Origin: a virus
Length of the DNA stretch: 51,608 nucleotides
Virus record (IMG/VR): IMGVR_UViG_3300020215_000010
Strand: one strand, 5' to 3'
Shown here: positions 8,968 through 45,649 of the stretch, piece after piece
How the letters are laid out: each line of letters starts with the position of its first letter
Numbering within the stretch: the first letter of the stretch is position 1
Program-made: the position numbers and the translations under genes
Notes under the pieces: generated by a model
What the model was told of the DNA's origin: nothing
Databases searched by the model: none
Seen by the model: the letters and a program-made list of their open reading frames with translations, nothing else

Positions 8968-8969
8968 CG

Positions 8970-9386: not shown

Positions 9387-9445
9387 AGCCGATTCTAGAA
9401 GGCGCCGCTCTCTCCAGGGCGCGCGAATTGAGAGGGAGATAGGGG

Positions 9446-10893: not shown

Positions 10894-11072
10894 CCGCAGC
10901 CAAGGATACCCCCGAGTATTGGGCAAACTGGCTGGTCGATGCTGTCGCTACCGCCACACAGGACAGACGCTTCCTGCGAGATGATCCCGCAGAAGACAAG
11001 GTTGCCACCGAAGCGATCTATCTAAACGGGAAAAGGGCGATGGAGCGTCTTTTGCAGGAGTTACGTACATGA
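10890..11072 (+). CDS. hypothetical protein (60 aa)
   Basis: ATGA-coupled ATG 10890. Confidence 0.45.
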   Translation: MTAAKDTPEYWANWLVDAVATATQDRRFLRDDPAEDKVATEAIYLNGKRAMERLLQELRT

Positions 11073-12259: not shown

Positions 12260-12331
12260 GCTTCTCATCAGCGTCATCGCCGCCGCTTTAGTTGTCGGCG
12301 TTATCTATCTAATCGCAAGGATCCATGAGCC

Positions 12332-12718: not shown

Positions 12719-13044
12719 TGGGCGACGAAAAGGAACGTGAAGATTTCTACGACAAGGAGATCGCGCCCGAGTTAGCTAAGCTGCGCGACCGTTGCGTGGA
12801 ACGTGGCTTACAGTTCCTCGCCTTGGTCGAGTGGGAGCCGGGGGAGTACGGCCGAACTACAGGCCTTAAGGCGCCGCTGGGCCTCGCTATCGAGTGGGCG
12901 AATTGGGCCGGGCAGAGCAACGGCAACATTGACTCGTTCATGATCGCAGTAATGCGGCAAGCCCACGAGCGCGGACACTCGTCGGCAGTTCTATCAATGC
13001 TCGGCGTGCCGACCTCCCCAGTCAAAAGCGAGGTTGCCCCATGA
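12715..13044 (+). CDS. hypothetical protein
   Basis: ATGA-coupled ATG 12715. Confidence 0.5.
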   Translation: MMGDEKEREDFYDKEIAPELAKLRDRCVERGLQFLALVEWEPGEYGRTTGLKAPLGLAIEWANWAGQSNGNIDSFMIAVMRQAHERGHSSAVLSMLGVPTSPVKSEVAP

Positions 13045-13250
13045 CTGACGCTCTGAGGCAGAAGGCGTGGAACATGAAAGAGCGAGACGCCCTATTGGAG
13101 TCAGCGGCGGCTTATCACGACGGCTGCGTTCACACACAATCGACAGGCTTTCGAGGCGGCATCGTAGCCGGGTGCGGTTGTGGTTCGTGCTGCAAGCACC
13201 GCGAAGCCGCCACCGCCATCCGCTCCCTGAAAACCCCCACCCCTTCGTGA
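13041..13250 (+). CDS. hypothetical Cys-rich protein
   Basis: 69 aa, ATGA-coupled; GCGCGSCCKH cluster. Confidence 0.45.
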   Translation: MTDALRQKAWNMKERDALLESAAAYHDGCVHTQSTGFRGGIVAGCGCGSCCKHREAATAIRSLKTPTPS

Positions 13251-13286
13251 GCGAGAGAATGACATTGCGAGAAATGGAGTAGCGTT

Positions 13287-13640
13287 GTGGACGACCCCTG
13301 GCTGACAGCAGACGAGGCCGCCAAGGAGCTGCGCTGTTCCCCGGGAACGGTGCGCCGGGAGCGGCTGGACGGCAGGCTCGGCTATGCTACCGTGCGCGGC
13401 CGGGTGTTCTACCCCCTCTCCCAAATCGAAGCCTACAAAGCGGCACAGGTTAAAGCGCCATGCCAGACTACCGACTCGCCAAGATCCCCGGCAGTCCCCG
13501 TTGGTACATCACGTGGACCGAGGGACACCGTAGCTTTCGCAGAACGACAGGCACGGCGGATCGCGAGCAGGCTACCCAAGTCCTCGCGGCTTTCGTCCTC
13601 GAAGCTGCGCGTGGTCCAGTCGTCGAACCGGCCGACGTAG
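13287..13640 (+). CDS. excisionase-like HTH protein
   Basis: WLTADEAAKELRCSPGTVRRERLDGRL MerR/Xis-type HTH; directly upstream of int; tail overlaps int by 181 nt. Confidence 0.6.
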   Translation: MDDPWLTADEAAKELRCSPGTVRRERLDGRLGYATVRGRVFYPLSQIEAYKAAQVKAPCQTTDSPRSPAVPVGTSRGPRDTVAFAERQARRIASRLPKSSRLSSSKLRVVQSSNRPT

Positions 13641-14641
13641 AGGTTCGGGAGGTGCTGGAAACCTACTACCGCGAGCACGCCTCCAAGCGCCCCAGCGCCG
13701 AACAGGCCAGGATCGCCAAGGCGCACCTGATTGCCTTCTACGGTGTGGCCCGGGGCACGGCCGTAACCGCAAAATCTCATTCTATGTATGAGGAAAAGCG
13801 GCGGTTGCAGGGGGCCGGGTTCCAGACCATCAACCGGGAGCGCATGGTGCTCCGGGCGGCCTTTAATCACTCCCGCAGGCACCACGGGCTGACCGTGGTC
13901 CCCTACGTGCCGACCATCCCAGAGGATCACCCGGACAACGACCCGGTAGAGCCCAAGGGCAGGCCGCTGAAGCTGGGCGAGGTGACGGCCCTGCTCAAGG
14001 CGTGCGCCTACGTCCACGAGTGGCGGTTCCTGCAAATGCTGATCGGCACCCTCTGCCGGCCGGATGCCGCCTTCGACTTCGAACCCGACAAACAGGCCGA
14101 CTTCGAGCACGGGCTTATCGACCTGAGCCCGCCGGGTCGGAAGCAGACCAAGAAGTTCCGGCCGGTGGTGCCCATGCCGCGATTCCTGCGGGATGAGTTC
14201 AAGCGGGCCGGCAAGGGGCCGTTTATCGCGTATCACGGGGAGGGCATCCGAAGCAGCAAGACGGCGTTCCGCCGGATGCGGGCGGATGCGGGGCTGGATG
14301 AGAGGGTCAACCCCTACTCGCTCCGCCATACGATAGCGCGGGAGCTGCGCCGTCGCGGGGTCCCGGGCGACCAGATCAGCATCATGCTCGGCCACCGCCC
14401 GCCGAACACCAAGCGGACCGACCTTATCTATGCTCCCTACGAGCCCGGCTATTGCCAGGATGCGAAGCGGGCCATCGAATCGATATGGGCTACCGTTGCG
14501 CGCAACTTGCGCGCTCCGGCCGGGCCTGCGGAAATCTTGAAACCTGCAAGAAAGGCCCGTAGAATAATGGTGGGTGCGACAGGGATTGAACCTGTGACCC
14601 CTACCATGTCAAGGCACCGCCCTAGGTTTCAGAGGAGCTAA
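13460..14641 (+). CDS. int: tyrosine integrase
   Basis: YSLRHTIAREL (HxxR), MLGH, LIYAPY catalytic region; arm-type N-terminus; last about 25 codons run through the attP core. Confidence 0.85.
   Translation: MPDYRLAKIPGSPRWYITWTEGHRSFRRTTGTADREQATQVLAAFVLEAARGPVVEPADVEVREVLETYYREHASKRPSAEQARIAKAHLIAFYGVARGTAVTAKSHSMYEEKRRLQGAGFQTINRERMVLRAAFNHSRRHHGLTVVPYVPTIPEDHPDNDPVEPKGRPLKLGEVTALLKACAYVHEWRFLQMLIGTLCRPDAAFDFEPDKQADFEHGLIDLSPPGRKQTKKFRPVVPMPRFLRDEFKRAGKGPFIAYHGEGIRSSKTAFRRMRADAGLDERVNPYSLRHTIARELRRRGVPGDQISIMLGHRPPNTKRTDLIYAPYEPGYCQDAKRAIESIWATVARNLRAPAGPAEILKPARKARRIMVGATGIEPVTPTMSRHRPRFQRS
14568..14614 (-). other. attP core: 47-nt 3' part of a tRNA-Val(GAC)-like gene (anticodon loop to CCA), not a complete tRNA
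   Basis: Minus strand reads TTGACAT loop, GGTAG, GGGTC, ACAGG-TTCAATC-CCTGT T-arm, CGCACCC-A-CCA; the 5' anticodon-stem partner is absent. Confidence 0.75.
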
Positions 14642-14675
14642 GGCCTTGATGCAACTAGCCCGGGGTAATCCATAA

Positions 14676-15143
14676 ATGTCAGAATCAGGCAGATCAAACC
14701 GCGAACAGCGCGCAAGTTGCGCGCGTTGCATTTACTTCGTCCGGGCGGGGGCCAAAGGGCCGGTCAAGATCGGGTATGCCGTCAGCGTGGCGGAGCGGGT
14801 GGCGCTCCTACAAACCGGGAACCACCTCCCCCTGCTGCTCCTCGGCGTCTACCCCGGGACGGTAGCCCTTGAGTCGATGCTTCACGCAAAGTTCGCGCGC
14901 GAGCGCATACGCGGCGAGTGGTTCAAGCCGAGCGCCCGGCTACTGCGCTACATCGCCAACCTGAACACCGACTTCGATGCTCACGGCCACGACAAAATTT
15001 GGCGGGAGGAGATGATTAAGCGCATGGCCCGGGAGCACAGAGACGAAGGCTACCGTAAACGGGCGGCCCGGTCCTTCGGCATCAAGCTGCCCGGGAGGCC
15101 GGCGTTGCCGGGCGAAGGGCAGGGCCGGGTATCAGCGGTATAA
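14676..15143 (+). CDS. T5orf172 / MUG113-type (GIY-YIG superfamily) domain protein
   Basis: IYFVRAGAKGPVKIGYA...LQTGNHLPL...LHAKFARERIRGEWF. Confidence 0.65.
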   Translation: MSESGRSNREQRASCARCIYFVRAGAKGPVKIGYAVSVAERVALLQTGNHLPLLLLGVYPGTVALESMLHAKFARERIRGEWFKPSARLLRYIANLNTDFDAHGHDKIWREEMIKRMAREHRDEGYRKRAARSFGIKLPGRPALPGEGQGRVSAV

Positions 15144-32954: not shown

Positions 32955-33754
32955 GACGCCCTTCCGTATTTCTGCTTGGCTTCGCGGTAGCGCTCCTCGG
33001 CCTTGAGCCTCGGAAGCTCCGAGTACATGCGGTGTGCGATCAGCTTCTCGTCCTGCGAGAGCGGTGCGGCACGGGTTGACGGTCGCGCGCCCGCGTCATC
33101 GGACAGCACGTTCGCGGCGGTGCGCTGCACGGTCGGCGTGCCCATCAGGCGGTCCACCTCGCGCAGGCAGGCGGCAACACCCTGGGTCGTGAACTCCGGG
33201 TCCTCGAACACGCCGGCCGCCGTGCTCACGGCGCGCCTGTTCTTTGGATGACCGGCCTGTGCCCACGGGCGCTTGAAGTTGCCGTTGGCATCCGTTTCGG
33301 CCTGCCACGCCTGAATCGCGACCTGAACATCGGGGGGCAATAAGGCGGGCTCCGCTTGGCCGTTTCCGGCCGGCGGCTTTTTGGCCGCCAGCTTTTCCTC
33401 GGCCTTCAGCTCGGCGATGCTTTCGGCGGCATCCCCGGCGGCCTTGAAGTCGGCCCGCTCCAGGGCGGCGGTGTGCTTCTCTTTCAGCTCGGCAATCGCC
33501 TTGGCCCGGCCGCGCTGCTCGGCTTCCGCCTCCAGGCGCTGCTGGTTCTCGACGATCAGCCGCATCTGCGACGCCATCGAATCGATGACGCGCTCGTTCT
33601 GCTTCATGTGGCCGTAGACGCGGTTGAACCGGGCCTGCGTGTCCGGGTCCATCGGGACCGGCTTGCGGCCCTCTTCGCCCTGTGTGGGAGCCGGAGCCTG
33701 TTCGGCGGCCGGCTTGCTGTCAGGCGCCGGGGCCTGCTCCTGGGTGTCGCTCAT
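32951..33754 (-). CDS. scaffolding protein candidate
   Basis: Ala/Glu/Lys-rich coiled-coil; between portal and capsid genes. Confidence 0.55.
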   Translation of the reverse strand: MSDTQEQAPAPDSKPAAEQAPAPTQGEEGRKPVPMDPDTQARFNRVYGHMKQNERVIDSMASQMRLIVENQQRLEAEAEQRGRAKAIAELKEKHTAALERADFKAAGDAAESIAELKAEEKLAAKKPPAGNGQAEPALLPPDVQVAIQAWQAETDANGNFKRPWAQAGHPKNRRAVSTAAGVFEDPEFTTQGVAACLREVDRLMGTPTVQRTAANVLSDDAGARPSTRAAPLSQDEKLIAHRMYSELPRLKAEERYREAKQKYGRAS

Positions 33755-34041
33755 GATTCGATGCACCACGCCCCGAGGATGTCCTCCTCGTGGCAGATGA
33801 AGCGCTCGACACCGTCGATCTTGATCCAGTCGCCGCTGTTCTTCTTGAACAGCACCTTCTGGCCCTTGAGGCGCTTGATATCGTCATCGGCCGTCTTGCC
33901 GACCGCGATGATGATCCCCTCGGCCGGGGCGTTGCGCTTCTCCGCTGTCTCGGGAATGATCAGGGAGGTGGTCTTCTGGATGGACTCGCGCTCAAGCAGC
34001 ACAAAAGCCCAGAAGGGGTGAAACCCCTGGGTAACGCTCAT
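33751..34041 (-). CDS. GroES-like co-chaperonin
   Basis: LIIPETAEKRNAPAEGIIIAVG...KGQKVLFKK...EEDILG aligns with GroES blocks. Confidence 0.65.
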   Translation of the reverse strand: MSVTQGFHPFWAFVLLERESIQKTTSLIIPETAEKRNAPAEGIIIAVGKTADDDIKRLKGQKVLFKKNSGDWIKIDGVERFICHEEDILGAWCIES

Positions 34042-34115
34042 GACACACTCGTAAGTTGTTGATCCGACGCGCTGATTACCCGTGCGGAAGCGTCGATTTT
34101 CCGCCGGGATTCGGC

Positions 34116-34121
34116 TATAAT
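34116..34121 (+). promoter_or_regulatory. perfect TATAAT -10 box 6 nt upstream of the lipoprotein ATG (leaderless-type promoter)
   Basis: ggcTATAATccgggcATG read directly; the -35 is weak. Confidence 0.45.
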
Positions 34122-34127
34122 CCGGGC

Positions 34128-34700
34128 ATGGCAAAGCGCCTCGGATTAGTCCTGGCTCTGGCAATTTCGCTGGGGGGTTGTGCGGCTTCAGCGCCGCACG
34201 AGATCGACCCGTCGTCTATCAGGCCGCTCGTGGAGTTCGTCGAGCGCGAGACGGGTTACAGGCTCGATCCACTGCCCAGAATCATCGTGGACAGGGAGAG
34301 AATGTCGAAAGACTGGTCAGGTTCGGCCAGTGTGTTTGCTTACGTGCCCCAGGCATCGTTCTCCGCGTTCAGCGGCGAACCGATTGTCTACCTTGACCAC
34401 ACCCGCTATATGCCCGGCACCTCACAATGGAATGCCGCCATCGTCCACGAGCTGGTGCACTACGGCCAGTATCTGACCTACATGGCGGCGGTGCGGGCAG
34501 GACCCGCCGCTGTCACCGAATTACGCAGCCGCAAGGGCTGGGTCTGTACAAGGTCAACAGAGATCGAGGCAACGAACGCCGAGATCCGGTATCTCCGAAA
34601 CCACGATCCCGTTTATGCCCGCCGCATGGAGGCAGTAAATCTTGCCGAGTATTCCGCCTGCGTCAGCGGCTACAAGCCAACGCTATTTGGCCGACCCTAG
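34128..34700 (+). CDS. lipoprotein with HExxH zinc-metallopeptidase motif
   Basis: MAKRLGLVLALAISLGGC lipobox; VHELVHYGQ; opposite strand to the surrounding operon. Confidence 0.6.
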   Translation: MAKRLGLVLALAISLGGCAASAPHEIDPSSIRPLVEFVERETGYRLDPLPRIIVDRERMSKDWSGSASVFAYVPQASFSAFSGEPIVYLDHTRYMPGTSQWNAAIVHELVHYGQYLTYMAAVRAGPAAVTELRSRKGWVCTRSTEIEATNAEIRYLRNHDPVYARRMEAVNLAEYSACVSGYKPTLFGRP

Positions 34701-34708: not shown

Positions 34709-34882
34709 ATGAAACCGTTTTTGGCCGCTATGTTTCTTGTCGCTGCGGCGCTGCCGGCGCTCGCTCAAACCCTGGCTTGCGGGATTCCCCCGCTCGCGCC
34801 GCTCGGCTGCATCACCGGCCGACCCGTCTGTGTGTGTGATGCCGCCGGTAATTGCGGTTGGGTTTTTGTCGGCTGCTTCTAG
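34709..34882 (+). CDS. secreted Cys-rich peptide (57-aa precursor)
   Basis: Signal MKPFLAAMFLVAAALPALA; 6 Cys in the 38-aa mature part; GGGGGCGAA upstream. Confidence 0.5.
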   Translation: MKPFLAAMFLVAAALPALAQTLACGIPPLAPLGCITGRPVCVCDAAGNCGWVFVGCF

Positions 34883-36195
34883 GAGCTGAGTATCGCTTCC
34901 AACAGCGCCCGCGTCTGGTTCGGGGCGGCAATGCCCCGCGAGCCCAGATAGCCGAGTTCCGTACCCAGCAGGTTGGCAAAGTCCGGCATCTGGCCGGCGT
35001 CTGAGATCAGCCCGCGCTGGGTCAGGTTCTTCCAGTAATCGAATGCTTCGTCGGTGGCCCACTTGCCGCCCGTGCCCTGTGTGGCGAAGGTGGCGATCTT
35101 GGCGCGGCGCTGGAGCGGATCGTCGGACTCGAAGTCGAGGAACGACGGCGCATCCATCGCCGCGGGGCGGCTGAGGCTGGTCGGCGCGGCAACATTGCTC
35201 GGCTTAACGAAGGGGGAACCAACGCCGCCCTCGCTGCCGCCAGTATCGCCGCCGGGCGCGGGATCGGCCTTGCCGGTTCGCGCGCTGTCCCGTTCCATTG
35301 TCGCGTCCAGTAGCGAGACAAGTCCGTTGATTGCCGTGCCGGGCCCAAGGCCCAATACAGAGTTGACCACGGCCTGCTGCGACATCATACCGGGGTTTTG
35401 CGGGAAACCCGCCTTCTCGGCGGCTTTCTCCATGACGCTGCGAAACCCGCCGACCGGTGCTTGGCCCGGAGCCTGACCCGAACCGCCGCCGGTTCCGCCA
35501 GTAGCTCCGCCCGGACCCGGGCCGCCGACGCTGCCGGCCTGCCCGCCCTGGTGGCCGGGGGCGCCACCCGGATTGGGACCACCAATTGCGCCTTCGCCAA
35601 ATCCGCCCATGCCGTGAGGATCGCTGACATTGCCGCCGAGCCCTCGCCCGCCGGCACCCGTGTTGCCGCCCTGTGTGCCGGCGCCGTCCGGGCTGTCTTG
35701 GCTGTTGTCGTTGGAGGTGCTGTCCGTTGTGCCGCCGCCGCCCATGCCGCTGGAATCCTGCCCGCCCTGTCCGCCGGGACCACCGGGGCCGTCGCTCCAG
35801 AACTCCAGCAATCCGGTCTGCGGGTTGATCGAGCCGCCGTCCGTGTTCTGGTGAAGCATCTGCGCTTCTTGCGGATTGATGTGCGCCAGCACGGTATCGC
35901 CCATGCGGCCCTGCTGCTGCAGGGCAAACGCCATCCGCTTCAGTTCGTCCTGATACCCGCTGCCCATGCCGGGCATCGGACCCATGCCGGCGGGGTTGCC
36001 TCCCAATGCACGCAGGAAGGCCGCCGCCGTCGCATCGCTGGGCGCGGAACCAACCGCCTGACGCGCCATCTCCGCGCCTCGGCCGCTGACCTTCCCCGCG
36101 TTGGGATCGCGGTACCGGCCCATGCCCATCGTGCGCGCCATCTCCGGGATCATCCGGGAGCGTGACGAGCCGTAATTCGCCGCCTGGGTATGCAT
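34879..36195 (-). CDS. Gly-rich virion-associated protein
   Basis: 438 aa; GDTVLAHINPQEAQML...GSINPQTGLLEF motif, then a low-complexity Gly region of about 150 aa. Confidence 0.55.
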   Translation of the reverse strand: MHTQAANYGSSRSRMIPEMARTMGMGRYRDPNAGKVSGRGAEMARQAVGSAPSDATAAAFLRALGGNPAGMGPMPGMGSGYQDELKRMAFALQQQGRMGDTVLAHINPQEAQMLHQNTDGGSINPQTGLLEFWSDGPGGPGGQGGQDSSGMGGGGTTDSTSNDNSQDSPDGAGTQGGNTGAGGRGLGGNVSDPHGMGGFGEGAIGGPNPGGAPGHQGGQAGSVGGPGPGGATGGTGGGSGQAPGQAPVGGFRSVMEKAAEKAGFPQNPGMMSQQAVVNSVLGLGPGTAINGLVSLLDATMERDSARTGKADPAPGGDTGGSEGGVGSPFVKPSNVAAPTSLSRPAAMDAPSFLDFESDDPLQRRAKIATFATQGTGGKWATDEAFDYWKNLTQRGLISDAGQMPDFANLLGTELGYLGSRGIAAPNQTRALLEAILSS

Positions 36196-36197: not shown

Positions 36198-36404
36198 CTA
36201 TTCGTCCTTCGGTAACTCGTTGCTAAGCTGGAGGGGCAGCTCCCTGAGAAAGTCCGCCACTTCCCGCCATCCCTGGACCTTGCTCAGCCTGTCCTGCGTA
36301 GCTGCCGTCTTCCATGCCTGCTCCGGGAACCTCCGGTCCAGGGCGGCCAGCACCCACCGGGTCGTCGGCTCCTGGAGCCAGTCCTTGAGCGTTTGCCTGT
36401 CCAT
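36198..36404 (-). CDS. hypothetical protein (68 aa) nested over the portal 3' tail
   Basis: GC3 very high in this frame and about half in the portal frame over the same bases. Confidence 0.55.
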   Translation of the reverse strand: MDRQTLKDWLQEPTTRWVLAALDRRFPEQAWKTAATQDRLSKVQGWREVADFLRELPLQLSNELPKDE

Positions 36405-38331
36405 TCATCTGCATCCCTTGGTTCATCACCCCCGACATCATCACCGCATGGGCCTTGACGTGCTCCATCAGCAGCGAGCGGCCGAGCGAGGACAGCGCCG
36501 ATACCGGGTTGTTCAACTCCGCCATGTGAAGTTGGAGGTGCATCTGGTGGTCCTGGTCCGGGAAGGCCATCGGCATCATCGGCGTCTGCTGGAGCGCCAG
36601 TAGATTTTCCATCCCCGGATCGTCGATCCGCATCATCATGGTATTGCCCGGGTTGGGCAGGATTTCGTCGATGTTCTCCGACTGCATCGCTTCCAGGTAA
36701 CGGCGCGAGGCGTTGTAGAGGTGCTGGGGCGAGTTCAGGACCAGCGGGTTGGTTGACAGGAACTGCCACTCCGCATTTGCTTTTGTAAGCCGCTGCTGCT
36801 CCGTCGCCATCTTGGGGTCGGCAACCGGAAGGATCTGAAGGTCGGGCGCGTAGTCCTCTCTCGCGACGGTGAACTGCTTGAGTTCCCCGGCGACATCGAG
36901 GACCGCGAAGTATTCCTTCGGGTCGAGGAATTTGTGGTTGAGGCGGTAGAGCTTTGAAAGCTCGTTCGACCACGCCTCGTTGATCCGCTCGTAGACCGAG
37001 GAGAAGACCTGTAGCGACTGCTCGATAAGAGCCAGCAAGGCGGTAGGCTGAACAACCTTGTCGGTCTGCCCCGTGATCGCCTCGGTTACCGTTGCCAATC
37101 GGTCGGAGCGGGCCGCGAGCAATTCGATGGCCTGGAGCATCGAGACCTGGGGGCCGGGATACTTGGGGACCCAGATGCCCTTTTGCAAATCTTCCACAGA
37201 GCCGGGGACCTTGACGAACTGGCCCAGCTTCATCTGGATTTCCCGGCCTTCGATGCCCCCAAGCTGCTGGGACATGAATCCGGAATTGTTGCCGACATTG
37301 GCCAGCGTGGCCGCGTCGATGAACTGGCGGAGAAGCTTGTTCACGCTCGCGTTGGGCTGGGAGATCAGATGCCCCAGTCCAAGGCCATAGAACCCGTCCG
37401 GGTTCTCCATATAGGGGTAGTGGGTGAAGTACTCGACTGGCTCCTTGTCCGCCGTGGGATTACCCAGCTCATCCGTATCGTAACGGACGACAATGCGGAG
37501 CACCTTCCGGGTCGCGGCGTCAACCGTGACGACGTAGGGCTCCTCTATTCCATCGTCGTCCAGATCGAGCAGCCGGTGCTGCTCCAGCAGGACCACGGGC
37601 TGATAGACGATCATCCCGGGCTCGGTCAGGCCATGCGACTGGTCGTGCGCCCGGTCGATGTTGTTCTTGGCCTCATCCCATACAGCGGGAGTGCCTTCGT
37701 CGATGAAGACGCCCTTCTCCTTGAGGATGCGCGTCTTGTTGACCGACATACGGATGATGTGCGTCTTGCGCTCTATGTCCTCCAATTCACGGGGACCCAC
37801 CCCGTAGGAAACCGTGAGGTCGATGGCGCGGACGTTATCGACGATGTTCCGCTTGCGGGCCGGGCAGTAGTACGACTTGGTGAACACCGAGCCGTGGAGG
37901 GGAACGCCGAGCAGAAGGCGGTCCTTGCCCCGCTTGTAGAGCTTGTCCTTGACGGTGCACTGCCAGGCCATATGCGCGCCCACGCGCTTGGCCCGCTCAA
38001 TCGAATGGGAGTCGTCCTTGCCAACCGGGATGGCCTTGATGAAGTTCCGGCTGGGGAACATGGCCTTGTAGGCTCTGGCTGCAAACTGGGTGCAGCCCTC
38101 GGCCAGCAGCGGTAATGATTCGCTCGAAGAGCCTTCCCACGGGGGGTTCTTCGGCTTGTCGTCCTGGTAATACATCTTGAGCCAGAAAGCGTGCTTCTCG
38201 ATCCATTGCTTTCTTGACTCCTCGTCGTGCCGCCACTCCTCGTAGACCCGGTTGCCGATCTCGGTCAGTTCTTTCTCGTCGAGCTTTGCCGCGATATTCC
38301 GTGTTTCTGGGTGCAGGAATTCGTCGCTCAT
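36223..38331 (-). CDS. portal protein
   Basis: 702 aa; PPWEGSSSESLPLLAEGCTQFAARAYKAMFP resembles the podovirus portal N-region; position upstream of scaffold and capsid. Confidence 0.7.
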   Translation of the reverse strand: MSDEFLHPETRNIAAKLDEKELTEIGNRVYEEWRHDEESRKQWIEKHAFWLKMYYQDDKPKNPPWEGSSSESLPLLAEGCTQFAARAYKAMFPSRNFIKAIPVGKDDSHSIERAKRVGAHMAWQCTVKDKLYKRGKDRLLLGVPLHGSVFTKSYYCPARKRNIVDNVRAIDLTVSYGVGPRELEDIERKTHIIRMSVNKTRILKEKGVFIDEGTPAVWDEAKNNIDRAHDQSHGLTEPGMIVYQPVVLLEQHRLLDLDDDGIEEPYVVTVDAATRKVLRIVVRYDTDELGNPTADKEPVEYFTHYPYMENPDGFYGLGLGHLISQPNASVNKLLRQFIDAATLANVGNNSGFMSQQLGGIEGREIQMKLGQFVKVPGSVEDLQKGIWVPKYPGPQVSMLQAIELLAARSDRLATVTEAITGQTDKVVQPTALLALIEQSLQVFSSVYERINEAWSNELSKLYRLNHKFLDPKEYFAVLDVAGELKQFTVAREDYAPDLQILPVADPKMATEQQRLTKANAEWQFLSTNPLVLNSPQHLYNASRRYLEAMQSENIDEILPNPGNTMMMRIDDPGMENLLALQQTPMMPMAFPDQDHQMHLQLHMAELNNPVSALSSLGRSLLMEHVKAHAVMMSGVMNQGMQMNGQANAQGLAPGADDPVGAGRPGPEVPGAGMEDGSYAGQAEQGPGMAGSGGLSQGAAPPA

Positions 38332-38855
38332 TTACGCGGCTGCGCTAGGTAATGGCGCATGGCTTCGAGCAGATATGTCTGCTTGTCCGTGTACGTCCCG
38401 GACTTGCGCCACTCGTCCCTCTCATCGGGCGCGAGGTAGCCTCTGATGTATGCGTCAAGCCATGACCTATCCATCCAGTCATCGTAGGAACGGGTTTCCT
38501 TGCCGCTGCTGTGAAGCTGGTTGTATTTGCGCCTGTCGAATTCGCGCTGCTCTGGCGTAAGAGAGCCCCGGAACTGTTCTCGAAAATCCCTGAACTTGGG
38601 ATCGACCTGCGGCATGTAGTGCAGCATGTCGCCAAAAACCGCGCGCTGGAGCGCGTCGCCCGTTAGGTTCTTGTCGTAAACTTCGATGGTGGGTCGGCCG
38701 GGGTACGGATTTGTCGGCTCGTCCGGGTTGAAAAATTCAAGGCTGCCGCCGTATTGCGACACATCACCGCGACGAGCGGCCCAGTTATGCCCAGAGAGGG
38801 CGGGGTACTGGTTCAGAATATTCGAGATGACTGGGGCGAACTCGTCCTCAGACAA
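38328..38855 (-). CDS. hypothetical protein upstream of portal
   Basis: 175-aa ORF, ATGA-coupled. Confidence 0.5.
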   Translation of the reverse strand: MSEDEFAPVISNILNQYPALSGHNWAARRGDVSQYGGSLEFFNPDEPTNPYPGRPTIEVYDKNLTGDALQRAVFGDMLHYMPQVDPKFRDFREQFRGSLTPEQREFDRRKYNQLHSSGKETRSYDDWMDRSWLDAYIRGYLAPDERDEWRKSGTYTDKQTYLLEAMRHYLAQPRK

Positions 38856-40401
38856 CTACGTCGCTCATCTCGGCGCGTCTGCGAACACGGGAATTCCAGA
38901 TATGCGGCACCATGCCGGGGCCGTACATCTCGACATCGATCATATAAGGCATGTCGAGGACCCGGGCGATGTCCTGGCACTGGGCGATCTTTTCATGGTC
39001 GGTGACGAATTCCTTGCCGTCGATGGTGACCTTGACGAATTTCGGCTGGCCGCGCTTGTCGAGCGTCGAGAAGTCGATCTTGTCCGTGTCGGGATAGGAG
39101 CAGTCGTAGCCGTAGCCCTTGAACTTCCTGAAGCCGATGGCGTGCAGGATCGAGATGCCGCGCATGGCCGCCGAGCAGCCGCCGGGAATGAGAAAATGCC
39201 CCTCGCCCAATCGCTGGGCGACGACATCCTGCTCTCCCGCTCCGACCTGGGCATGGTAGCCATAGACCCTCGCTTTCTTCTCGATGAGGCGGTCAATCGT
39301 GGTTGGATGGACCATTGAGGCGACGAGGTAGCGCACCTCGGGATGGGGGTTCTCGATAAAGTCCTGGACGTGCGAGCGGGGATCGAGGAGCACGCAGGCC
39401 CACGGGATTATTCCCTGGGCAATCAGGTCGTCATGCGCCGACTTGACGCAGACGACGTAGTGGTTGGGCTTCTGCTGAAGCTCCTTGATGGTCTCGTAGT
39501 AGTCCTTGAGGCTGGGGCCGCCGGAGCAGAACACGGCGATGCCGTCGTGAATCTTGCACTCGACCAGCCAGTCCTTGAGCAACGTGGCCGAATAATGGAC
39601 GTTGGCCCGGATGTTGACCTCGGGGACGCAGTTCTTGGTCTTGACCATGATCTCCATCCCTCCAGCGGAGGTATGGGCGATGGCCCCGATGCCCTTCATG
39701 CCGTCGGGGCGCTTCTGCTTCATCTTCTTCTTGGCGACCGGCCCCTTGTCGTGGCGCATCCTTGTGCCGAGGATGGACTGGTTGAATACCTCCAGCCCGG
39801 ATAGGTCGGCGCTGATGTTGTGCCACCAGCCTTCACGAAGCTGGTCGAACACGTAGGAGTCGTGCCACTCCTTCATGTTGAAGATTTCGCCCGTGACATA
39901 GGCGTTCCTGAACTTCGCCAGGAACTCGTCCGCCCGGTATTGAGTATTGAACCCGACGAAGCCGCACTCCGAATGCGGCCAGTCCTTGCGACCGAGGTAG
40001 GAGCCCGCGAATCCCTCGGGGCAGACCGCTTCGACGAATTCCTCGTCCACCTTGGCGTGGGTCTCTATGTCGGCATCGAGCCAGATCCACCACTGAGCCG
40101 CTTTGCTGGCGATCCGCTTGGGATCGGTCAGGGCAAAGACCTTGTGGCTGAAGCGCACGGCCTGGAAGCGGTAGTCCGACGAGGTGTCGAACTTCTCGTC
40201 CATGAACTTCTGCCGGTCCGCGTCCTGGTCGAGATCGACATAGGTAATGCGCGGGGACTGGATATCCGGCTTCGTCCCCTCGTAGTAGACCCACAGGGGG
40301 ATCGAGACGGGCCAGTGCTTCAAGTAGGATTCGATGAAGCGTCTGCCGTAAAGCCCGTAGTGCTTCCGGCCGAACGTGGTGACGCAGGCAAAGCGTGTCA
40401 T
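38848..40401 (-). CDS. two-domain glycosyltransferase: GT-A-like N-domain plus MptE/Maf (DUF115)-like C-domain
   Basis: WLDADIE (DxD); AVFCSGGPSLKD, VVCVKSAHDDLIAQGIIPWACVLLDPR, GGCSAAMRGISILHAIGF..GYGYDCSY. Confidence 0.6.
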   Translation of the reverse strand: MTRFACVTTFGRKHYGLYGRRFIESYLKHWPVSIPLWVYYEGTKPDIQSPRITYVDLDQDADRQKFMDEKFDTSSDYRFQAVRFSHKVFALTDPKRIASKAAQWWIWLDADIETHAKVDEEFVEAVCPEGFAGSYLGRKDWPHSECGFVGFNTQYRADEFLAKFRNAYVTGEIFNMKEWHDSYVFDQLREGWWHNISADLSGLEVFNQSILGTRMRHDKGPVAKKKMKQKRPDGMKGIGAIAHTSAGGMEIMVKTKNCVPEVNIRANVHYSATLLKDWLVECKIHDGIAVFCSGGPSLKDYYETIKELQQKPNHYVVCVKSAHDDLIAQGIIPWACVLLDPRSHVQDFIENPHPEVRYLVASMVHPTTIDRLIEKKARVYGYHAQVGAGEQDVVAQRLGEGHFLIPGGCSAAMRGISILHAIGFRKFKGYGYDCSYPDTDKIDFSTLDKRGQPKFVKVTIDGKEFVTDHEKIAQCQDIARVLDMPYMIDVEMYGPGMVPHIWNSRVRRRAEMSDVVV

Positions 40402-41852
40402 TTCAGCCCAAATAGTGGGGAGTCAACCTCCCCGATGATGTTGATGTATTTCCGGTAGCCATCGCCCTTCAGTCGAGGAGCGACCCCGTGCACCGAGTCC
40501 GGCGTGTTGAGGAAGAACAGAACGGTTCCGGGAAGGCACTCAATCGTCTCGACGATCTCGACGCTTCCGGGCTCCGCTTCCGCTTTCTTGACCATGCCCT
40601 CGCGGCCGACAAACGAGCGCGGACCCTTCCAGCGATAGATTTCAAGCTCGCCGCCGCCGAGATAAACCAGGCCCGCATAAAGTTCCTTCGGGTCATCGAT
40701 GTGGGGTCCTCTCACCGATGAGGTTTCCTCGACCGGTGTATTCACCGCGAACTGGCAGTCGAGGCGGAACGGTTGCTTATCCCTGCCCCTAACCCCGGCG
40801 GTGAGCGGGAGGGACCCCAGTTGCGGATAGAGACGACGGATCTCGGGGGCGAAGATGAGGAACAGCTCGTTGAGGAACTGCTCCCCGGTGTGAAGCTCGA
40901 AAAACTCGCGCCAGAAGGCGGAGGTGGATTCGTCGCCGAGGACTTCGCGGGCCGAGCGCTGGTAGAGGGTGTTCTGTTTTGCCGGTCGGCCGAGGATGAT
41001 GTCCGCAGGATCGGGGAAATTCTTTTCAAGCTGTTCCAGGTAAACCGGGTCAAGCCGGCCAGCAATGTAAGGGAATGGCTTGACACGGTCCCTCCTTTCA
41101 ACAAGGGCGCCAAGAACGGATTTCAGCCGAACGCCTGGGTTATGCCGTAGCGGTTCAGCAGGTTTTGCTCCCACGTCAGCCGGGGCGTGGTGGCGGTACT
41201 TGCCCTGGACCGGGACCTTGAATCCTTCGTCGCTCGTTTTTCTGAGGGCGCAGACGAGCATGATGTTCTTGTCGGTCGGTTCCGGTCTTTTGATCTCTTT
41301 CGGGTCGATGTTTTCGATGAGGACATTGCCATCCCGATCCCCGGCGTACATCTCAAGGATTTCGTAGCCGTTGGCGTGAGCAAGATCGAAGAACAGGACG
41401 GGGTTGAAGTTGTAGAAACCGTGGTTCCGCCAGTTGATCCACGGCAGCACGTGCAGGATCACCCCCCTTCGTTTGCAGAGGTTGTGACAGGTCTCGAAGA
41501 TGGCCGCCTGGTTGAAGATGTGCTCGCCGGTTCCGTTGTTGGTGACGAGGTCGGCCGGCTCTAGATGCGGGTACGGTGTCGTCGCAGCGCTGGTGGCAAT
41601 TTCGATCTCCTTCGGGATACTGATAACCGTTCGATTCAAATCGAGGCTAACCGTCCCCTTCCCGTCGAAGTCGATGGACTCGTAGCGGGTAAACCCGAGG
41701 AAATCGTAGTAGTCGGGCACGTCCTTGAACGTGCGGTCCTTCAACTGGAAGGTCAGGGTCTGCGAGCCAAGCTCGATCACCGAGAGGTCCTGGCCCTCGA
41801 TGTGCTGGCGGACTTTCATCACCGCCTTGCCGGCCATCGGATTGAATGTCAT
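40398..41852 (-). CDS. class-I SAM methyltransferase fused to a P4H-like 2OG-Fe(II) oxygenase
   Basis: VIELGSQ, ADLVTNNGTGEHIFNQ...GVILHVLP; C-domain PHIDDP (HxD), YAGLVYLGGGELEIY, DSVHGV. Confidence 0.55.
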   Translation of the reverse strand: MTFNPMAGKAVMKVRQHIEGQDLSVIELGSQTLTFQLKDRTFKDVPDYYDFLGFTRYESIDFDGKGTVSLDLNRTVISIPKEIEIATSAATTPYPHLEPADLVTNNGTGEHIFNQAAIFETCHNLCKRRGVILHVLPWINWRNHGFYNFNPVLFFDLAHANGYEILEMYAGDRDGNVLIENIDPKEIKRPEPTDKNIMLVCALRKTSDEGFKVPVQGKYRHHAPADVGAKPAEPLRHNPGVRLKSVLGALVERRDRVKPFPYIAGRLDPVYLEQLEKNFPDPADIILGRPAKQNTLYQRSAREVLGDESTSAFWREFFELHTGEQFLNELFLIFAPEIRRLYPQLGSLPLTAGVRGRDKQPFRLDCQFAVNTPVEETSSVRGPHIDDPKELYAGLVYLGGGELEIYRWKGPRSFVGREGMVKKAEAEPGSVEIVETIECLPGTVLFFLNTPDSVHGVAPRLKGDGYRKYINIIGEVDSPLFGLK

Positions 41853-42457: not shown

Positions 42458-43212
42458 GCGCTTTCCTTCAGCCTGTCCCAGATTGAGGGTCTGGGGTTTC
42501 TCATCCGGGAGCGTTCAAGCTCCCACAGCCCGCCGTGCTCGATAAACCACGGGGCCTTTTCCGAGTAGTGGACCGCCTTGGGTGTTACATCCGGTGACAC
42601 ACCCTGTATCCAGTTCCACTCGGGAGGTAGCTCTCCGATATCCTCGTCCTTCAGCCAGGAGAAGGAATGCAACCACGAGCCGGGTTTGTGGTTCACCACG
42701 TCAACCGTCAGATCGGCGTTGAGCGGGTGCTGGAGGTTGAACAGCACGAGGCTCGACCAGTTTTTGCGGTGGTATGAAGTCTGGGCTACCCCGTCCATCT
42801 TTACAGAGTCAGTAGGGGTGTGACGGTGCTTGACACACATCACCGCAAATCTTTCGTCCGCGAGAGCGAACAATTCCTTGATATTGGCCTGAAACAGAAA
42901 GTCGCAGTCCATGAACGCCGCCCATTTGGCAGAGGGCACGTCGCGCTTCGCCAGCAGGTAAGTCAGCCAGCGAGAATGGGAGAACTCGGTCGAGAATGGC
43001 TTTCCATCACGCTCGTCAACGTATTGACCTGTCTCCCCAACTCTCCAGGGTCGGTCGAACAGGCCCTCCGCTCTCAAGGTGCGGTGCTTCAGGGGCCGGA
43101 TATAGGTTGAGGCTTTGGTGCGGTCGATGATCGAGAAGCGGCAGACCTCGTAGGCGTCCTGTTCGCGACTGTCCCACCCGATATAGATCGGCAAGACCTC
43201 AGAATCGGTCAT
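42454..43212 (-). CDS. GT8-like (GT-A fold) glycosyltransferase
   Basis: PIYIGWDSRE start, FMDCDFLF DxD, KNWSSLVLFN. Confidence 0.55.
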   Translation of the reverse strand: MTDSEVLPIYIGWDSREQDAYEVCRFSIIDRTKASTYIRPLKHRTLRAEGLFDRPWRVGETGQYVDERDGKPFSTEFSHSRWLTYLLAKRDVPSAKWAAFMDCDFLFQANIKELFALADERFAVMCVKHRHTPTDSVKMDGVAQTSYHRKNWSSLVLFNLQHPLNADLTVDVVNHKPGSWLHSFSWLKDEDIGELPPEWNWIQGVSPDVTPKAVHYSEKAPWFIEHGGLWELERSRMRNPRPSIWDRLKESA

Positions 43213-43957
43213 TCAGTATTCTCCACGCCGTCCCGTTCCTCATCTCATCGAGGCGAAACTGGTGATAAGCGAGCGCGTGGCACCAGCGCTCGCGCGGCGG
43301 CCACCAGGGTTTTTCGATGTCCTCGAACACCCACGAAACCGTCTCGCACGCCGACTCGCCCAGCACCACGGCCGGAACCCCCGCCAGCAGCGCATCGACG
43401 GCGCTGTTCGATGAATGCGTGACGACGCACCAGCAATCGCGCAACGCGTCCGAAATCTCCCCCTCTCCCTTGGGCTTGACCACGATAGGCCGGGAGGTGT
43501 TGCGGCTAATCTCCGTCGTCACTGTCCGCAACCACTGATCCGCATTGATGCCGTAGAACCCGGCGATAGCCCCGGTCAACGGGATGACCAGCACGTGCCG
43601 GCCGTCCTTGCGCCACGGGCTCAAGCCGAGGTTCAGGTCTTTCCAGCGGTTCTCGGGGTAGACGTATTCCCCCTGGTCAGGGAGGTCGGCCTGCCGGCCG
43701 TTCTTCGTCACCCGGTAGAAGCCTTCATAATGTCCGGGCTTGAAATACCCGTGGTCGATGTAGAAGAAATCCCGCTGCACCCACTCGCATTGCTTCAGGA
43801 TTTCCCCCGTTCCCCGCAGGATGCCGTACATGGCGGCGGGTCCCTCTAGGAGCTGCGTAGGAGGGACGATCCTGCCCTTACACCCTTCGGCAAACGCACT
43901 CATGATCACCTTGGAGTGCTGGTGGTCGGTGGTGTAGCAGCAGGGTTGGCTAGTCAT
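43199..43957 (-). CDS. GT-B-like / capsule-synthesis-like glycosyltransferase
   Basis: HVLVIPLTG...VVTHSSNSAVDALLAGVPAVVLGES Rossmann-type C-terminal block; ATG 43957. Confidence 0.45.
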   Translation of the reverse strand: MTSQPCCYTTDHQHSKVIMSAFAEGCKGRIVPPTQLLEGPAAMYGILRGTGEILKQCEWVQRDFFYIDHGYFKPGHYEGFYRVTKNGRQADLPDQGEYVYPENRWKDLNLGLSPWRKDGRHVLVIPLTGAIAGFYGINADQWLRTVTTEISRNTSRPIVVKPKGEGEISDALRDCWCVVTHSSNSAVDALLAGVPAVVLGESACETVSWVFEDIEKPWWPPRERWCHALAYHQFRLDEMRNGTAWRILNDRF

Positions 43958-44150
43958 GCAACACCGGGATATCGAACTCCACTCGCGGCCATAGCGTGAA
44001 CGAACGGCCGTCGCCATCCGGCGTGGCGAAGTATTCCAGTGCCAGGCGTTGCGCTTCCCATTCGTGCGGCGCGGCGACGACGTAGGAGACGCGCTTTCTG
44101 GTCCCCGTCCCGGAGACAAAGGTGACGGGGCAGCGCCAGGCGGTTGTCAT
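43950..44150 (-). CDS. hypothetical protein (66 aa)
   Basis: ATGA overlap with the terL stop. Confidence 0.45.
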   Translation of the reverse strand: MTTAWRCPVTFVSGTGTRKRVSYVVAAPHEWEAQRLALEYFATPDGDGRSFTLWPRVEFDIPVLHD

Positions 44151-45649
44151 GACAGGGCGTAGGGGTCCTCGGTCTTCCCCCTGGCGCGCTTCATGTCTTC
44201 ATGGTTCTCGGCAAGCCAGCGGTCTTCTTCGGTCGTCACGAAAGGCCTCGATCTCAAGGCATAGGCCACTTCGTCATAAACGTGATTCTCATCCGAGGGC
44301 TTATCCCCCGGCCCCTTCTCGCCATCGATCTCGTCGAGCAATAGGGTGGGGCAGGTTCTCCAGAACTGGGTACAATCAGCCGTGACAAAGAACATCGGGT
44401 CGTTGAAGGATTCGCCTGTTTCGAGATAGCGGTCGTTGCCCGCTAACCTTGAGATCACCTCGTTGTAGTTCCGCTTGCGGTCCTTCTTGGCTTTTCGCAT
44501 CACCAGGCGCGGATCGGTCTGGAACAGGGTTTCTGCGACACATGTACCCCCCCGGTCGGCCCACATCTCCGTGTCCCCGACCCGGTAGTCCATGCGCTCG
44601 CCCATGCGCTCCAGCTCACGCTTGATGATGCCCTTCCCCACTTCCTGGGGACTCAGCCTCAAGCCTTCGTTCGGCCGGCCGTTCCAGCCGTACCATTCGG
44701 CGTAGCGGATCAGGGCTCCGGCCGGTAACCAGCGGCTCGGCCAATTTCCTTTTGCCGCAAGCTCAACCCCCTCGCTGACGCAGTACCAGCCAATCGAGAA
44801 GGGGCGGACGACGCCCCAGTCGATGACCATGAAGCGTGTCCAGTGCTTCGGAGGGGTAAAAGCCCTCAACATATGCCTGTCGCGGGACAGGTTGAACAAA
44901 GCCTGCCCAACCACCGCGTCCCAGTCGCCCTCTCGTAGCTGCTTCGCCAATTCCGGCGGCAACCCCGAGAACTGACCGGCATACCCCTTATCCAGATAAC
45001 TGTTGTCCTGCATCCGGGCGGGGATATAGACCGTCGCCCAACCCTTCGATTCAGGATCCGAGGGGTCCGACATCGTCTTGTCCCAGAACAGCGTCTCCGC
45101 CGGGGCAGGGTCGATCATGGTTTTTTTCAGGAACGAATGACCGGGGCCGCCGGGGTTCGAGCACAGCACCACTCTTGGCAGCAGATGCTTGCAGGCTTCC
45201 GCGGGTTTGTATCTTCCCAACCGGACGCGGGTTCTCAGATAGTTGATCTGGAACGCCGTTAAGTGTGCCGCCTCATCGATCCCGAGCCAGTGAATCTCGG
45301 CGCCTTGGTACCGGGTGACATCGTCCTCTTTTTCGCAGTACGCGAGGTTGATCCCGGCCCCGTTGTAGAACTCGAACCGCTTCTTGGTGTCGTTGTAGGA
45401 CCCCAATTCAGTGGGGATCTCCGCCTTGATCTTGCGGATGTGGTTCGCCTCGAGCTCCGGCAGGGTCCGCCTGAATATGAACGCATCCAGCCCGGGGTTG
45501 CTGAGGCAGAAGCCTATCGCGTCCCACCTCAGGCTGTGCGACTTCCCGCCTCCCGCAGCACCCCCATAGAAAATCTGCCGGGCCAGGGACGCGTGTAGCA
45601 GCCTCTGCCGGCTCTGCGGCTCATAGTCGAGCCGTATCGTTTGCTGCAA
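44147..45649 (-). CDS. terL: terminase large subunit
   Basis: Walker A GGAAGGGKS, IDEAAH Walker B-like; 500 aa; TTG start per track. Confidence 0.85.
   Translation of the reverse strand: MQQTIRLDYEPQSRQRLLHASLARQIFYGGAAGGGKSHSLRWDAIGFCLSNPGLDAFIFRRTLPELEANHIRKIKAEIPTELGSYNDTKKRFEFYNGAGINLAYCEKEDDVTRYQGAEIHWLGIDEAAHLTAFQINYLRTRVRLGRYKPAEACKHLLPRVVLCSNPGGPGHSFLKKTMIDPAPAETLFWDKTMSDPSDPESKGWATVYIPARMQDNSYLDKGYAGQFSGLPPELAKQLREGDWDAVVGQALFNLSRDRHMLRAFTPPKHWTRFMVIDWGVVRPFSIGWYCVSEGVELAAKGNWPSRWLPAGALIRYAEWYGWNGRPNEGLRLSPQEVGKGIIKRELERMGERMDYRVGDTEMWADRGGTCVAETLFQTDPRLVMRKAKKDRKRNYNEVISRLAGNDRYLETGESFNDPMFFVTADCTQFWRTCPTLLLDEIDGEKGPGDKPSDENHVYDEVAYALRSRPFVTTEEDRWLAENHEDMKRARGKTEDPYALS

Follow-up and report, generated by a model that had tools for sequence, protein, structure and literature searches.

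A phage late-gene cassette encodes a methyltransferase-fold domain fused to an Fe(II)/2-oxoglutarate oxygenase, with a possible role in sugar tailoring

Introduction

Few accessory genes of unexplained function are as common in phages as those for Fe(II)/2-oxoglutarate (2OG) oxygenases; one of them is tied here to a defined pathway. It lies in a 51,608-nucleotide stretch of viral DNA (IMG/VR record IMGVR_UViG_3300020215_000010), referred to below as the window, where a single open reading frame (ORF) of 484 codons joins a methyltransferase-like amino-terminal domain (N-domain) to an oxygenase domain (C-domain). The fusion gene belongs to a group of putative glycosylation genes, the cassette, which is situated between the terminase and portal genes. 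A preliminary description, made from the sequence alone, had read the ORF as a methyltransferase fused to a prolyl-hydroxylase-like oxygenase that prepares an acceptor for neighbouring glycosyltransferases. How does this locus compare with systems that have already been described?

By fold, the closest enzymes are PasI of Photorhabdus asymbiotica and PolD of Streptomyces cacaoi, Fe(II)/2OG oxygenases of the pathways leading to high-carbon sugar nucleoside antibiotics. They have in common with the C-domain a double-stranded beta-helix core and an HxD...H iron site, and their substrate is an acidic eight-carbon sugar derivative. They differ in that they are stand-alone proteins of about 210 amino acids encoded in secondary-metabolite clusters, without a fused methyltransferase or a glycosyltransferase cassette. 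Among 2OG oxygenases, hydroxylation of a sugar residue in the surface glycans of bacteria is, to our knowledge, well known only for KdoO, the 3-hydroxylase of 3-deoxy-D-manno-oct-2-ulosonic acid (Kdo) found in Burkholderia and Yersinia (PF11004; the enzyme is reviewed in PMC8533242). A likeness to KdoO is seen in gene context, as two bacterial homologs of the C-domain adjoin Kdo-pathway or Kdo-transferase-like genes; however, KdoO is not among the best 50 fold matches of the C-domain and carries no fused methyltransferase.

A precedent for the joining of an S-adenosylmethionine (SAM) methyltransferase to a 2OG oxygenase is ALKBH8, in which a methyltransferase and an AlkB-type oxygenase in one polypeptide carry out consecutive steps on a wobble uridine moiety of tRNA. 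The domain order in ALKBH8 is the opposite of that in the phage protein, its oxygenase is of the AlkB type, its substrate is RNA, there is no glycan context, and the relation is at the superfamily level only. Enzymes of the prolyl 4-hydroxylase (P4H)/PF13640 type, including those of phages and giant viruses, show the same HxD...H...basic-residue pattern and the same Y..(G)GG.L strand as the C-domain, but the contexts in which the C-domain family occurs are polysaccharide clusters and not protein-modification systems.

With respect to glycosylation, soluble viral glycosyltransferases act together with methyltransferases to decorate virion proteins in mycobacteriophages (Che8-type) and in giant viruses (systems mentioned in PMC11256854). 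These systems differ in enzyme families and in genome position from the phage cassette, for which virion glycosylation is a proposed role, supported indirectly by its late placement, its soluble proteins and the structural genes beside it. We know of none among them with a 2OG oxygenase-methyltransferase fusion or a Maf-like transferase. The Maf/PseD/PseE islands resemble the phage locus in being soluble cytoplasmic cassettes with methyltransferases and an MptE-like domain (PMC3426422, PMC4065374), but the window has no genes for pseudaminic or legionaminic acid synthesis, and in the phage the Maf-like protein is extended at its N-terminus by a domain that has a DxD motif. Phage 5mYOX clusters also combine a 2OG oxygenase with glycosyltransferases, sometimes near structural genes; their oxygenases are of the TET/JBP type, which the C-domain does not resemble by sequence or by fold rank. 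None of the systems compared covers the combination found here.

The fusion protein and its two domains

The fusion ORF begins with ATG, and the identical 484-amino-acid product is predicted by independent gene callers on public contigs of the same phage. About 40 full-length homologs were found, at 35-80% identity, all with the two-domain architecture. A chance ORF or a pseudogene is ruled out because these full-length homologs are conserved and the catalytic residues are invariant. The preliminary description of one ORF with two domains is confirmed by the ORF listing, the public gene calls and the homologs, and every motif it quoted is found where expected in the translation: VIELGSQ (residues 24-30), NNGTGEHIFNQ (105-115) and ILHVLP (132-137) in the first domain, and PHIDDP (383-388), YAGLVYLGGGELEIY (392-406) and DSVHGV (452-457) in the second. 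The linker between the domains varies in length and is poorly conserved in the family alignment. No DNA or protein match to the fusion ORF was found in 50,697 deposited phage genomes, and no cultured phage has the fusion. The PHROGs and NCBIfam collections hold no family for it, and PDB sequence searches with the fusion protein, the C-domain profile and three neighbouring proteins returned noise only. At the domain level the pairing of a methyltransferase with a 2OG oxygenase is ordinary; what is said below about function is what we infer from it and from its surroundings.

The AlphaFold2 model of the N-domain, built on the family alignment, has a predicted local distance difference test (pLDDT) score of 89 and a predicted template-modelling (pTM) score of 0.88. 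Foldseek gives 100 matches in the PDB at E<=1e-3, and those listed are SAM methyltransferases or SAM-binding proteins; they include BioC, PNMT/NNMT, SAMTOR and the sugar C-methyltransferases KijD1 and MtmC. Methyltransf_23 (PF13489) is matched by 34 of 35 N-domain relatives (best E 2.4e-8), the window N-domain alone scoring 12.9 bits (cut-off 27; E=0.09). The fold, the Foldseek matches and the family-wide PF13489 signal together substantiate the earlier assignment of a class-I SAM-methyltransferase-like domain. Invariant residues in the family are G29, Q31, D61, N73, V103, N105, G107, T108, E110, H111, N143 and H144. Conserved as well are D61, D71/N73 and D101 together with the NNGTGEH block, the acidic residues being placed as expected after strands 2-4. 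Judged by sequence, SAM binding by the N-domain is likely. Stand-alone homologs of this domain, of about 282 amino acids and covering residues 1-219, are abundant.

The C-domain model, also built on the family alignment, reaches a pLDDT of 94 and a pTM of 0.90. In it, a helical extension at the N-terminus precedes a double-stranded beta-helix with eight core strands; the first residues of the model, at the edge of the linker, have low pLDDT. Foldseek finds 247 PDB matches at E<=1e-3, and Fe/2OG oxygenases account for all but one of the best 50. Among these 50 of the 247, the best matches are PasI (9ei6/9ei7) and PolD (9blq), with E values of about 4e-8 to 5e-8 and TM-scores of 0.54-0.64. The 9ei7 structure contains bound 5-amino-6-hydroxy-octanosyl acid 2-phosphate. 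P4H, P3H1 and the ribosomal oxygenases rank lower and have poorer TM-scores than PasI and PolD (0.31-0.44 for P4H). The viral structures of BFVD yielded only generic 2OG oxygenases at TM-scores of about 0.5 or below.

Conservation of the active-site residues was assessed in 216 sequences, the query C-domain and 215 stand-alone homologs of 200-340 amino acids. H384, H455 and R467 are present in 216/216, D386 in 215/216 and R460 in 211/216; R355, R460, N371 and N449 are all more than 95% conserved. In 34 fusion proteins H384, D386 and H455 are invariant. R467 lies 12 residues beyond H455, and its predicted role in 2OG binding is assigned from this position alone. The preliminary description had proposed an HxD...H Fe/2OG oxygenase, to be checked by structure prediction and a Foldseek search. 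These were run, and the oxygenase is well founded: the double-stranded beta-helix is present and the triad is conserved, near-invariantly, across the family.

The Pfam evidence for the C-domain is generic. 2OG-FeII_Oxy_3 (PF13640) is matched weakly by 22 of 27 relatives (best E 3e-5), and its threshold is passed only by some distant homologs, such as P0214 at 29.3 bits. In P0214, a protein of 627 amino acids, three stretches match the C-domain profile and may represent a tandem repeat. Among the 27 family members searched at E<=1 there is no Tet_JBP or AlkB match and no match to PF11004, the KdoO family; membership of the C-domain in the KdoO family was rejected on the latter ground. No TET or JBP structure is found among the best 50 fold matches, where ALKBH6 occupies rank 37. 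By the available sequence and model comparisons, the protein belongs to none of the P4H, TET/JBP, AlkB and KdoO families.

Could the enzyme nevertheless act on DNA? A TET/JBP-like (5mYOX) oxidation of a 5-methylpyrimidine, followed by glycosylation and sugar methylation, would give hypermodified DNA that is protected from restriction. Phage clusters of 5mYOX and glycosyltransferase genes exist and can adjoin structural or terminase genes (bioRxiv 10.1101/2023.12.21.572611; PMC8256090), and at one bacterial locus the module lies beside type I restriction-modification (R-M) and McrBC genes. Methyltransferase neighbours are present in only 20-30% of phage 5mYOX contigs (bioRxiv 10.1101/2023.12.21.572611). 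Apart from the Pfam and fold results, what speaks against DNA as the substrate is that the associated transferase is Maf/MptE-like and not JGT-like or T4-like, and that the bacterial homologs are found in polysaccharide-export clusters. The neighbours of the fusion gene in the window are genes for glycosyltransferases, methyltransferases, terminase and portal, and not for DNA metabolism. In addition, no ORF of the window has both the PCQ and the ENV motif of cytosine-C5 methyltransferases, although such an enzyme is not obligatory for 5mYOX. This absence, already noted in the preliminary description as an argument against a TET-like 5-methylcytosine pathway, holds across the window ORFs, and the argument is strengthened by the lack of Tet_JBP matches and TET/JBP folds. 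A TET/JBP-like DNA oxygenase was rejected on these three grounds, and DNA hypermodification is considered very improbable.

The C-domain family is large. Its stand-alone members are about 250-300 amino acids long and form at least 539 clusters (50% identity) at E<=1e-30. Fusions with other partners are also found: with GT8 in P0231, with FkbM in P0275, with Methyltransf_11/12 in P0230 and with a D-2-hydroxyacid dehydrogenase in P0295.

Bacterial homologs and their gene neighbourhoods

In bacteria the two domains are found as separate proteins encoded by neighbouring genes. The contexts were obtained mostly from exact-protein look-ups, and a pattern scan of genome contigs gave three loci. In a metagenome-assembled genome of the Planctomycetia the genes are adjacent in the order N then C and overlap by 4 nucleotides; the order is the same in locus L020, where stop and start codons overlap. 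A Bacteriovoracia genome has adjacent genes in the order C then N, and in a marine single-cell genome the two are convergent neighbours.

A glycan-related context is present at six of the eight bacterial loci. Loci L013 and L020 carry genes for Wzm, Wzt with its Wzt_C domain, a hexapeptide acetyltransferase, TylF and FkbM methyltransferases, MptE-like proteins, GT1 and GT8; the MptE-like and GT1 parts occur as one protein in this type of cluster. DegT and GT2 genes are found in L013 only and not in L020, which has two further genes, for an isomerase with SIS and CBS domains and for a CTP_transf_3 cytidylyltransferase. We take the former to have the architecture of the arabinose-5-phosphate isomerases of the Kdo pathway, and the latter that of the synthetases of the cytidine monophosphate (CMP) sugars CMP-Kdo or CMP-sialate. 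L021 encodes a protein with a Kdo-transferase N-domain, a CTP_transf_3 protein and a protein weakly matching GT8 and a methyltransferase. In L018 two tandem oxygenase paralogs are flanked by GT8 and GT2, and L017 has GT2, PMT_2 and MBOAT as neighbours. L010 contains an FkbM/RfbT-like gene, a further methyltransferase gene, a second 2OG oxygenase gene and a homolog of the DUF6716-like protein of the phage.

The split-domain island of the marine single-cell genomes L010 and L011 (positions 1-7300; GCA_902570155.1 and GCA_902573435.1) is directly beside McrBC and PD-(D/E)XK nuclease genes, which are followed by type I R-M genes in L010 and by carotenoid genes in L011. This adjacency may be fortuitous in an island of variable content, or may point to some connection with defence.

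Taken over phages and bacteria, GT8-like, FkbM and MptE-like genes accompany the oxygenase in about 20 contigs of phages and in several bacteria that are not related to one another. The suggestion that it works together with glycosyltransferases is borne out by this co-occurrence and by the fusion to GT8. A module of oxygenase, methyltransferase, GT8-like and Maf-like transferases thus recurs in phages and in bacterial polysaccharide clusters.

Possible function

What might the fusion protein do? The explanation favoured here, with a confidence slightly better than even, is that it combines a hydroxylase and an O-methyltransferase that tailor a sugar of a late-expressed phage glycan, probably one carried by a virion protein. 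The C-domain would bind Fe(II) via H384, D386 and H455 and 2OG via R467, and with O2 it would oxidise, most likely hydroxylate, a C-H bond of the sugar. The fused N-domain would then methylate the same residue, most probably by conversion of the new hydroxyl to a methoxy group. The order might also be the reverse, with methylation first and oxidation of the methyl group afterwards. Late in infection, the glycosyltransferases would build up the methylated oligosaccharide within the cytoplasm of the host, with a virion protein as the most probable acceptor. There is a hint that the glycan might contain an acidic sugar of the Kdo or nonulosonic type, taken from host CMP-sugar pools.

A sugar is the suggested substrate because PasI and PolD are the top fold matches and because the bacterial split domains lie within polysaccharide clusters. 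Oxidation and methylation would be consecutive steps on one substrate, since the oxygenase has become fused independently to three methyltransferase families. The acidic sugar is suggested by the octanosyl acid ligand of the PasI/PolD enzymes, the conserved arginines of the oxygenase, the Maf-like partner and the Kdo-type genes at two loci. Maf-type enzymes glycosylate flagellin in the cytoplasm before its export (PMC4065374), and because they act in the cytoplasm a soluble cassette would fit with the glycosylation of virion proteins.

Several points weigh against this explanation. The sugar assignment relies on guilt by association, and the Kdo/nonulosonic hint comes from two to three loci and a Maf-like neighbour. 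PasI and PolD are only 13-16% identical to the C-domain, with TM-scores of about 0.55, and the protein hydroxylases P3H1, MINA53/NO66, OGFOD1 and P4H are significant fold matches also. PF13640, a generic family, gives the only Pfam signal, and the window protein itself does not reach the cut-off of 27 bits (15.8-16.8 bits; E=0.028). Motif I of the N-domain is non-canonical, as it reads ELGSQT and not GxGxG; we take it to resemble the DIGSGPT motif of the PNMT/NNMT family. Of the bacterial homologs, that of Algihabitans (L019) has no glycan neighbours, and the neighbours in L012 carry no annotation. The window does not encode nucleotide-sugar synthesis genes. Nor is there a candidate for the glycan acceptor, in that no structural protein is specific to the cassette-bearing phages: a glycine-rich protein encoded after the portal is not conserved in the lineage, and the capsid protein is present also in an Alcaligenes phage that lacks the cassette.

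Some of these points would fit hydroxylation of protein by an enzyme of P4H, lysyl or ribosomal-oxygenase type, which would make the acceptor on a virion protein for the glycosyltransferases, with the methyltransferase acting on the same protein or on the sugar. The succession of hydroxylase and glycosyltransferase is established for collagen. PF13640, the sole Pfam signal, is the family that holds the P4H domains; the significant fold matches include OGFOD1/Tpa1 and bacterial P4H along with those named above; and the cassette, as read from its genes, would be late-expressed and soluble, and it lies beside structural genes. However, a sugar acid is the substrate of the best fold matches, and the TM-scores for P4H are low. 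The split homologs occur in Wzm/Wzt-type export clusters and beside Kdo-pathway genes, where a protein hydroxylase has no obvious role, and members of the family are fused to GT8 or to methyltransferases of three families. Furthermore, no collagen-like or proline-rich acceptor is conserved among the cassette-bearing phages. The hydroxylase by analogy with collagen and giant viruses, which the preliminary description had put forward, thus does not find support, given the sub-threshold PF13640 score, the closeness of PasI/PolD and the polysaccharide-cluster contexts. A protein substrate is regarded as unlikely.

The sugar-tailoring explanation can be extended to a more specific proposal, which is speculative and rather doubtful. 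In this temperate podophage lineage the Maf-like transferase would glycosylate virion proteins with a (non)ulosonic sugar supplied by the host as its CMP form. The fusion would found a new class of sugar C-H hydroxylase/O-methyltransferases (at least 500 clusters), placing a methoxy group on an acidic sugar of phage particles and of ABC-exported polysaccharide caps.

If sugar tailoring is indeed the function, an uncharacterised oxygenase subfamily (at least 539 clusters at 50% identity) would couple sugar C-H hydroxylation to O-methylation. In bacterial surface glycans such chemistry comes so far essentially only from KdoO. It would mean elaborate late glycosylation, possibly of the virion, in a phage of Gram-negative hosts, which would bear on receptor binding, on evasion of immunity or defence and on particle stability. 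The family would also be a candidate for the terminal-cap chemistry that is read by the carbohydrate-binding domains of Wzt in ABC-transporter O-antigen export. The conserved phage cassette and the large oxygenase subfamily are worth experimental work.

The cassette and the late operon

The window phage is of the SU10/Mu-gpT type, with a portal and an adaptor of SU10 type, a Phage_capsid_4 capsid protein and a GroES homolog. Genes for an ERF single-strand annealing protein, a YqaJ exonuclease, a tyrosine integrase and a MUG113/T5orf172-domain protein are on the plus strand (6684-8509, 13460-15143); from this lysogeny and recombination module, the phage is temperate. No tRNA genes were found in the window. 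The genes for the TerS-like protein, TerL, the cassette proteins, portal, capsid, adaptor and tail are all on the minus strand (Table 1). Several late-gene junctions overlap as ATGA, and the cassette appears to be translationally coupled within the late operon. The late-operon placement given in the preliminary description stands on this common strand and on these overlaps.

Table 1. Features of the fusion gene, the cassette and its boundaries in the window
Feature	Position	Strand	Basis
Fusion ORF, methyltransferase-fold and Fe(II)/2OG oxygenase domains	40398..41852	-	ORF listing, public gene calls, homologs
Class-I SAM-methyltransferase-fold domain, residues 1-220	41193..41852	-	AlphaFold2 model, Foldseek, Pfam
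Inter-domain linker, residues ~221-245	41118..41192	-	Family alignment (variable length, poor conservation)
Fe(II)/2OG oxygenase domain, residues ~245-484	40401..41117	-	AlphaFold2 model, Foldseek, Pfam
H384-I-D386, first two iron ligands of the facial triad	40695..40703	-	Translation HID, family conservation
H455 (distal iron ligand) through R467 (predicted partner of the 2OG C5-carboxylate), with R460 between	40452..40490	-	Translation HGVAPRLKGDGYR
TerS-like protein, 226 amino acids	First in late gene order	-	Weak Sf6_terminase match
TerL, 500 amino acids, upstream cassette boundary	44147..45649	-	PF03237, phrog_979
66-amino-acid ORF between TerL and cassette, ATGA overlap with TerL stop	43950..44150	-	Gene calls on public contigs
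DUF6716-like putative glycosyltransferase, 252 amino acids	43199..43957	-	Weak repeated DUF6716 matches, TIGR04396 E=0.017
GT8-like glycosyltransferase, 252 amino acids	42454..43212	-	phrog_28018 E=5e-59; GT8 E=0.092
FkbM-family methyltransferase, 202 amino acids	41849..42457	-	PF05050 E=7.6e-17; TIGR01444 E=5.7e-26; phrog_8156
517-amino-acid two-domain protein, DxD N half and MptE/Maf-like C half	38848..40401	-	PF01973 E=3.4e-16, PseD E=3.6e-5
175-amino-acid ORF between 517-amino-acid gene and portal	38328-38855	-	~520-bp insertion relative to L001
Portal, SU10 type, 702 amino acids, downstream cassette boundary	36223..38331	-	PF23899, phrog_1216

Three glycosyltransferases had been described next to the fusion gene, which is confirmed only in part. 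The MptE/Maf-like domain is significant, the GT8-like protein matches its family weakly in the window, and the third has only weak DUF6716 matches, which recur in the same region of the profile. A 252-amino-acid protein 100% identical to this DUF6716-like protein is present in public data. A 306-amino-acid ORF with a TTG start (43199-44119) was rejected as the first cassette gene; it is probably mis-started, because the homologs and the public gene calls begin at M55 (nucleotide 43957). In the GT8-like protein a DxD motif (FMDCDF) and the sequence HYSEKAPW can be read, and its homolog in L004 is above the GT8 threshold at 25.8 bits. The FkbM family includes sugar O-methyltransferases such as RfbT of Vibrio cholerae; here the FkbM ORF overlaps the fusion ORF by 4 nucleotides. 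In the 517-amino-acid protein, PF01973 is matched at residues 287-438 (59.9 bits, cut-off 34.6), and the C half is by this match a relative of flagellin nonulosonic-acid transferases. A DxD motif (WLDADIE) is present in the N half, which has no Pfam match and is possibly GT-A-like. No transmembrane-like segments were detected in the cassette proteins.

The position of the cassette bears on a further alternative, whereby the same sugar chemistry would be directed at a host envelope glycan (intermediates of the lipopolysaccharide core/Kdo, O-antigen or capsule) or at flagellin. The outcome would be receptor masking, superinfection exclusion or reduced sticking of progeny to debris. Temperate phages commonly alter surface glycans, and the window phage, with its integrase, ERF and YqaJ genes, is temperate. 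The bacterial homologs are in cell-surface polysaccharide clusters, and flagellin is the normal target of Maf-type enzymes (PMC3426422, PMC4065374). However, the cassette is located in the late packaging/head operon, to which it appears translationally coupled, and about 24 kb separate it from the integrase, beside which genes for lysogenic conversion are usually found; there are no membrane, flippase or Gtr-type components in it; and a modification made late in the lytic cycle would have little time to take effect. A scan of 34-48 kb for promoters and terminators gave promoter-like sites at the chance level (3 against 3.2 expected), which in itself neither supports nor excludes an internal promoter. 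A host-envelope target is considered doubtful.

Conservation and variation of the cassette among phages

The cassette is found between TerL and portal in nine loci, L001-L009, which were recovered by exact-protein look-ups, and in 9 of 12 IMG/VR contigs. These cassette-bearing phages are 46-90% identical in their portals. The MptE/Maf-like domain is in every full phage cassette examined. Other parts vary: FkbM is missing in some, and an NAD-dependent epimerase/dehydratase or an FAD oxidoreductase has been added in some. The two halves of the 517-amino-acid protein are separate genes in more distant phages, including L005 and L009, and in the IMG/VR phage contig L030 and in L032 and L033 the fusion is split into two adjacent ORFs, one for each domain.

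Among cultured phages, Alcaligenes phage vB_Af_QDWS535 is the closest relative, with a portal 34% identical; for the nearest cultured phages as a group, the portal is all that is shared, at 25-34% identity. In vB_Af_QDWS535 the cassette is absent and TerL abuts the portal; therefore, the cassette represents an insertion in the present lineage. The closest relative of all is L001, with 83% DNA identity to the window phage apart from the insertion that contains the 175-amino-acid ORF. This ORF has no family match, a homolog is located upstream of TerL in the IMG/VR contig L025, and it looks like a small mobile gene.

L033 (positions 6200-13500 of a 117.7-kb IMG/VR contig) and L032 have the split domains beside genes for FkbM, a DUF6716-like protein and a DxD-motif protein similar to the N half of the 517-amino-acid protein. 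No Maf-like gene was detected by BLAST at the L033/L032 module. The L033 phage is much larger than the window phage and apparently unrelated to it, and the module appears to move between phage lineages. A related sugar cassette is found in L015 (MW202713.1, a podophage from Manatee Spring), immediately upstream of TerL and not downstream. It has homologs of the 517-amino-acid N half and of the DUF6716-like protein, a DegT sugar aminotransferase and a methyltransferase. One L015 gene was deposited as 'glycosyltransferase tibC', an annotation without Pfam confirmation.

Other genes of the head region

Directly after the portal is a gene for a 438-amino-acid protein (34879-36195, minus strand) that is 21% glycine and has long low-complexity tracts rich in Gly, Ser, Thr, Pro and Gln. 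It is conserved in relatives only over the C-terminal third, and might serve in ejection, as a scaffold, in decoration or as the acceptor of a glycan. An ORF on the plus strand (34056-34700) is embedded in the minus-strand late operon and is 68% identical to a gene of 233 codons at the corresponding position of L001. It may represent a moron or be expressed during lysogeny. Within the head-morphogenesis module there is also a GroES/Cpn10 homolog (33754-34041, minus strand). It is 94% identical to the L001 gene and has been kept across the whole lineage, Alcaligenes phage vB_Af_QDWS535 included.

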